NCBI GenBank assembly: GCA_965112155.1
Contig: OZ218099.1
Length of the DNA: 64,000 nucleotides
From: Podarcis liolepis
Taxonomy: Eukaryota
Strand: one strand, 5' to 3'
Position 1 is the first letter of the stretch. Every line of letters starts with the position of its first letter. The position numbers and the translations under genes are program-made. Below are positions 7,289-34,421 of the stretch, piece after piece. Below the pieces are notes generated by a model that worked only from the letters and a program-made list of their open reading frames with translations, was not told where the DNA came from and did not search any database.

Positions 7289-34421
<27,133 letters not shown>

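Follow-up and report, generated by a model that had tools for sequence, protein, structure and literature searches.

The valine and stop codons that end the STIMATE gene of this lizard, GTA TGA, double as a weak phase-0 5' splice site, and splicing from it into exon 2 of the neighbouring MUSTN1 gene is predicted to yield an in-frame STIMATE-MUSTN1 fusion, the orthologue of a known human read-through. With regard to its use, we hold it slightly better than an even chance that the weak donor is employed at a low level in read-through transcripts and has been kept mostly as a by-product.

The STIMATE stop codon and the computed fusion

In the window, that is, the whole stretch of 64,000 nucleotides analysed, the exons of STIMATE were placed by tblastn with reptile STIMATE proteins and the gene was identified by Pfam STIMATE (Table 1). 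The chain of eight exons runs from 34421 to 7289 on the minus strand and encodes 314 amino acids with one stop, 313 residues lying ahead of the terminal Val. Its end, CCT/GTA TGA at 7297-7289 (the slash marks the cut), was read directly in the sequence and is the one given by the first-pass annotation, which had also proposed that MUSTN1 exon 1 closes with CAG/gt at phase 0 and that the 313 residues would be continued in frame by MUSTN1 minus MSQ. Both proposals hold: the exon 1 boundary lies at 1890 and its joint to exon 2 is found in RNA, and the computed frame of the fusion is open. The last STIMATE intron (7718-7406, minus strand) has, by sequence, a GC donor, GAG/GCAAGT, and a bird-like contig (L012) carries GT at the equivalent position. 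ATCT and CA simple repeats occupy 7961-8045 of the window in intron 6.

STIMATE and MUSTN1 are neighbours on the same strand of the lizard genome. MUSTN1 exons 2 and 3 are the sole MUSTN1 matches in that genome; they are recognized by Pfam Mustang and match a Podarcis MUSTN1 at 93 and 97%, respectively, as befits a lacertid-like protein. Its C-terminus (L002:5890-5900, minus strand) reads Asp, the compared lacertid and other reptile records having Gly, and intron 1 holds a TTA simple repeat (L002:8200-8255). On the other strand (L004, L003 and L002:170-1658, plus strand) MUSTN1 has a tail-to-tail neighbour, a gene for an inter-alpha-trypsin inhibitor heavy chain; no ITIH gene was matched on the strand of MUSTN1 in the 30 kb covered.

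Table 1. Positions of the features discussed (window coordinates unless stated otherwise) and identifiers of the linker-bearing fusion models
Feature	Position or identifier	Strand	Remark
STIMATE Pro-Val-stop	7289..7297	-	weak phase-0 5' splice site made up of the Val and stop codons; cut at 7295/7294
STIMATE exons 1-6	34421-34202, 22843-22795, 20803-20708, 19697-19576, 11106-10994, 9847-9770	-	tblastn, translation, Pfam
STIMATE exon 7	7719..7868	-	phase-0 GC donor at its end
STIMATE exon 8, coding part	7289..7405	-	acidic, then polybasic cytosolic tail; covered by RNA-type contigs in 3/4 runs
STIMATE 3' UTR	3030..7288	-	length about 4.25 kb with an approximate lower end; AATAAA motifs at 3063 and 3047
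Gap from STIMATE poly(A) to MUSTN1 start	2236..2903		must be crossed by read-through; depth 0 in both bins, 8/8 runs
MUSTN1 exon 1	1890..2176	-	ATG at 1898, three codons, phase-0 donor CAG/gt at 1890; skipped in the fusion
MUSTN1 exons 2 and 3	G000:C2:75699815-75699695; exon 3 from 75697993		beyond the window; exon 2 begins at phase 0
SFMBT1 GTATGA donor (comparison)	46629..46634	-	exon side CAG; exon ends 46634
SFMBT1 GTATGA donor (comparison)	55118..55123	-	exon side TAG; exon ends 55123
Linker-bearing fusion models	P0016, P0031, P0042, P0342, P0350, P0372, P0410, P0413, P0414, P0498, P0500

A splice joining CCT to MUSTN1 exon 2 would excise 9,479 nt, and the resulting frame of 388 amino acids is open. 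A second in-frame route is computed from the GC donor of exon 7 to the same acceptor (351 amino acids), and a frog model (P0187) uses its equivalent. By calculation the fusion adds 75 MUSTN1 residues with a net charge of +5, a surplus of +5 being present within the first twelve. An AlphaFold prediction for a parrot fusion model, made from a 30-row alignment, was uninformative (mean pLDDT 46.9, pTM 0.20).

Donors were scored with a rough matrix of base frequencies, which serves to rank sites only. The stop donor matches 5 of 11 U1 positions and belongs to the lowest tier of the ten donors scored; its 2.6 in this rough matrix is close to the values of the weakest two among the real STIMATE donors (2.7 and 1.8); the weakness already ascribed to it in the first-pass annotation is borne out. 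The same annotation had pointed to two SFMBT1 introns that share the GTATGA hexamer. This is correct for the hexamer (exon ends 55123 and 46634, placed by open frame and homology), but both SFMBT1 donors have AG on the exon side and reach 7.2 and 8.6, respectively, in the rough matrix, and for this reason the shared hexamer was rejected as a sign of donor strength. Since any terminal Val codon provides a phase-0 GT, since GTA is not rare here (7 of the 20 Val codons in the STIMATE coding sequence) and since 92 of the 527 GT sites in the would-be intron of 9.5 kb score at least as high by the rough matrix, the overlap of stop and donor alone is not beyond chance. Judged from its sequence, the stop site is a usable yet unremarkable donor.

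The end of the STIMATE 3' UTR was set by stranded read cover, with contigs starting at 3051 and 3069, and lies about 0.8 kb short of a TATA-like element of MUSTN1 (2257-2250). In the main isoform exon 8 is terminal: reads and contigs cross the stop and reach the AATAAA motifs, and the transcript is polyadenylated. In the bird, conserved blocks of this UTR measure 561 nt (66%) and 114 nt (74%), and a further one of 71 nt (75%) lies close to the MUSTN1 start.

Exon 8 may be regarded as a terminal exon of the composite kind, where polyadenylation would normally win. Should the polymerase continue across the gap of 0.8 kb, pairing of the weak donor with the acceptor of MUSTN1 exon 2 could follow. 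Such a splice would drop the Val codon, the stop and the long UTR and give rise to a 388-residue membrane protein, which would keep the membrane domain and the acidic/basic cytosolic tail, gain the MUSTN1 residues and lose the free C-terminal Val. Other acceptors would probably be reached as well, as in a human record in which MUSTN1 exon 1 is entered in another frame, the in-frame product then being one of several outcomes. In the IgM heavy chain, the choice between secreted and membrane forms depends on a composite terminal exon in which a 5' splice site competes with polyadenylation and sets the C-terminus. STIMATE would be analogous in having a 5' splice site within its terminal exon in competition with polyadenylation; it differs in that its private tail is a single residue, the poly(A) site is 4.2 kb off and the downstream exons come from a separate gene.

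RNA from lizards

The STIMATE-MUSTN1 joint is listed in none of eight RNA-type runs, which are of low power and from unstated tissues; the normal joint between MUSTN1 exons 1 and 2 is present in all eight. Four of the data sets are raw reads from a related species, in which the normal joint is supported by 13, 10, 3 and 8 reads and the fusion joint (L005, 256 to 9736) is not listed, the stop being covered to a depth of about 2-4, a listing requiring 3 reads and 9 joints being hidden. These reads are swamped by repeats and shallow at the STIMATE stop; interspersed repeats near L005 2750-3050 and 6910-6990 attract thousands of reads from elsewhere. Four sets of contigs from four studies, taken as RNA by guess, no run being recorded as such, contain the normal joint throughout and the fusion joint in no case, contigs being prone to drop rare variants. 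In three of the four sets a contig runs through the STIMATE stop into the UTR, and the remaining one (X13) has no exon 8 contig at 96% likeness.

The fusion is not the main form in the sampled lizard RNA; rare use is possible, and since the tissues of the runs are unstated a tissue of high use may have been missed. The proposal that the lizard makes the fusion is so far unsupported. The absence of the joint from all eight runs weakens the case for low-level use in this animal and agrees with an alternative, which we consider rather doubtful, namely that the donor is unused in lizards, that read-through is confined to mammals and that the non-mammalian fusion models were copied by annotation pipelines. 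The low power of the runs lessens the force of this agreement, and the models themselves, discussed next, speak on both sides.

Fused gene models and the human read-through

The human STIMATE-MUSTN1 (TMEM110-MUSTN1) read-through involves the same two genes in the same order and on the same strand as in the lizard; the human transcript is curated and measured, whereas the lizard one is predicted only. According to the accessible part of one report it has been annotated in RefSeq since 2010 and was measured by qRT-PCR (PMC11894363), and the accessible part of another lists STIMATE-MUSTN1 as a gene (PMC12841848). Residues 214-294 of human STIMATE form the cytosolic acidic and basic tail, as stated in the portion available of a further study (PMC12910075). 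The accessible text of a Mustn1 review describes Mustn1 as restricted to vertebrates and as produced by smooth muscle as well, and contains no occurrence of TMEM110 or STIMATE (PMC11276411); the same absence holds for the accessible text of a paper on secretion from smooth muscle (PMC10950823). One supplement of PMC6764479 gave no match, and outside subscription journals no literature on the junction or its conservation was found.

Conjoined genes as a class were surveyed by Prakash et al. (2010), and the accessible part of that paper states that 16% (48/297) keep both frames and that new splice sites occur in 58% (PMC2953495). The lizard fusion would resemble them in arising by read-through with an intergenic splice that reaches exon 2 of the gene downstream, and it would join the 16% in which both frames are kept. 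[quoted passage not shown] The junction exons of conjoined genes, again according to the accessible text, lack significant conservation in fish or frog (PMC2953495).

When MUSTN1 and STIMATE served as queries, fused proteins were retrieved for placentals, marsupials, birds, turtles, geckos, amphibians, the coelacanth, gar, bichirs and teleosts. A pattern scan put the break directly before the Val position in 70 of the 73 fused records, which are redundant and not independent; the coelacanth record, which escaped the pattern, was inspected by eye. The exceptions are two galliform models that run through other sequence and one frog model without the last STIMATE exon. The break likewise follows this Pro in primate and pig models, where MUSTN1 lacking three residues comes next, in agreement with the human junction given in the first-pass annotation; the curated human protein lies outside the compared records. 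The pig model consists of 293 + 79 = 372 amino acids, which we take to be the length of the curated human fusion protein.

Eleven of the 73 records (six bird, two gecko, two frog and one opossum) carry ten different linkers, all with the seven-residue spacing of placentals, and where compared (P0344, P0495) the linkers differ from the native MUSTN1 start. Both squamate models, those of the geckos, are among them. The linkers are likely micro-exons invented in the course of protein-guided alignment to the mammalian protein, and the lizard intron offers 26 open AG-16 nt-GT slots for such candidates. This pattern favours non-use in lizards with copied models, as does the fact that none of the fused records listed by the protein searches stems from Logan run assemblies. 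On the other hand, the joint to the native start of exon 2 is clean in models from turtle, bichir and teleosts, which may be RNA-based or homology-based. Taken together, the fused database models were rejected as independent RNA evidence.

In six records the STIMATE frame is abandoned at the same codon in favour of sequence outside the MUSTN1 frame. The human one, EAW65270.1, follows MUSTN1 exons 1-2 in another frame for 64 codons, compared with 5-7 in five shuffles; because protein homology cannot force an out-of-frame reading, it represents a frame-independent use of the donor. The other five come from four mammals and a swan (P0437), and in the four of these that were tested a MUSTN1 origin of the tail was not demonstrable. 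The swan record, together with the clean joins and the identity of the site between lizard and bird described below, stands against confinement of the read-through to mammals.

Conservation of the Val-stop codons and its meaning

Among unfused records with the tail motif, 181 of 191 end in Pro-Val, sharks included. Lamprey STIMATE ends in Met-Pro-Val, and among 148 distant representatives, fragments being counted, 68 have V, L or I as the last residue. A STIMATE-like paralogue (G000:C11:9722717-9764409, plus strand) has the same exon layout, ends in GTT TAA, for which the rough matrix gives a donor score of -6.4, and has no adjoining MUSTN1. A hydrophobic C-terminus could serve as a PDZ-type or ER-export signal. 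A need for such an end at the protein level would account for the GT without splicing, since lamprey, sharks and the paralogue end in Val as well. Under the by-product reading the site would be kept via the conserved Pro-Val-stop end of the protein and the old gene order.

The bird-like contig also keeps GTA TGA, with MUSTN1 exon 1 about 7.6 kb further on, and 20 bases across the stop are identical to those of the lizard. The last four four-fold codons are identical in both (4/4), compared with 3/9 upstream, a contrast picked after looking. Conservation continues into the UTR (41 nt at 80%, 561 nt at 66%), so that constraints of another kind could hold the bases at the stop. Donor-compatible codons can be compared in two species, lizard and one bird (GTA TGA in both), with the paralogue (GTT TAA) as the one control, and on this footing the codon data lean towards constraint. 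Pattern scans for further vertebrate DNA yielded 1 of 28 hits in metagenomes, the other 27 being unrelated acidic proteins, and none in prokaryote genomes or viral contigs. As to the retention of GTA-TGA in sauropsids that had been predicted, one bird contig keeps the codons, but lamprey, sharks and the paralogue retain the terminal Val as well, and the step from a kept Val-stop to a selected switch is so far unsupported. Trust in the fish, amphibian and coelacanth models would make the term "amniote-wide" too narrow; without that trust it is unproven.

A different explanation is that of a selected switch as old as bony vertebrates, which makes an ER-anchored STIMATE-MUSTN1 in muscle or vessel-wall cells, gives up the free C-terminal Val and the 4.25 kb UTR and takes on a second basic cluster together with the short UTR of MUSTN1. 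We judge it unlikely. The GTA-TGA pair scores highest of 12 Val-stop pairs in the rough matrix, is identical in the bird and is missing from the paralogue; the gene order and both phase-0 boundaries would extend from fish to mammals, as fused models from bichir, gar, teleosts, coelacanth, amphibians, turtles, birds and mammals imply. Partners bind to the cytosolic tail of STIMATE (214-294; accessible part of PMC12910075), and a treatment alters the human transcript (accessible part of PMC11894363). Against this, the codon evidence comprises two species and one paralogue and includes the post hoc contrast, the conservation extends into the UTR, the Pro codon is not donor-optimal (CCG 6.1, CCT 2.6 in the rough matrix), junction reads are absent and the accessible texts of the two Mustn1 papers (PMC11276411, PMC10950823) make no mention of a fusion.

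Low-level use as a by-product is supported by the frame and lengths, the measured human read-through, the break point shared by 70 of 73 records and EAW65270.1, and furthermore by the weakness of the site, RNA running through the stop, zero depth in the gap and a Val kept irrespective of MUSTN1. It is weakened by the 20 identical bases, the codon contrast, the rank of GTA-TGA among the Val-stop pairs and the GTT-TAA of the paralogue.

If the site is not selected, many of the fusion models from fish to birds look copied from the mammalian protein and are not citable for conservation. That a stop codon has been held as a donor for more than 400 million years in bony vertebrates, tethering the secreted and nuclear MUSTN1 microprotein to the ER, appears quite improbable to us; if true, the last residue and the long 3' UTR of the calcium-entry regulator STIMATE would be swapped in muscle or vessel-wall cells. 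Were the site selected, the pair would be an uncommon case of a conjoined gene with deep conservation and a one-codon switch, providing a second STIMATE C-terminus and a membrane-bound MUSTN1, and knockouts of MUSTN1 exons 2-3, knockdowns and expression counts would then also affect the fusion.
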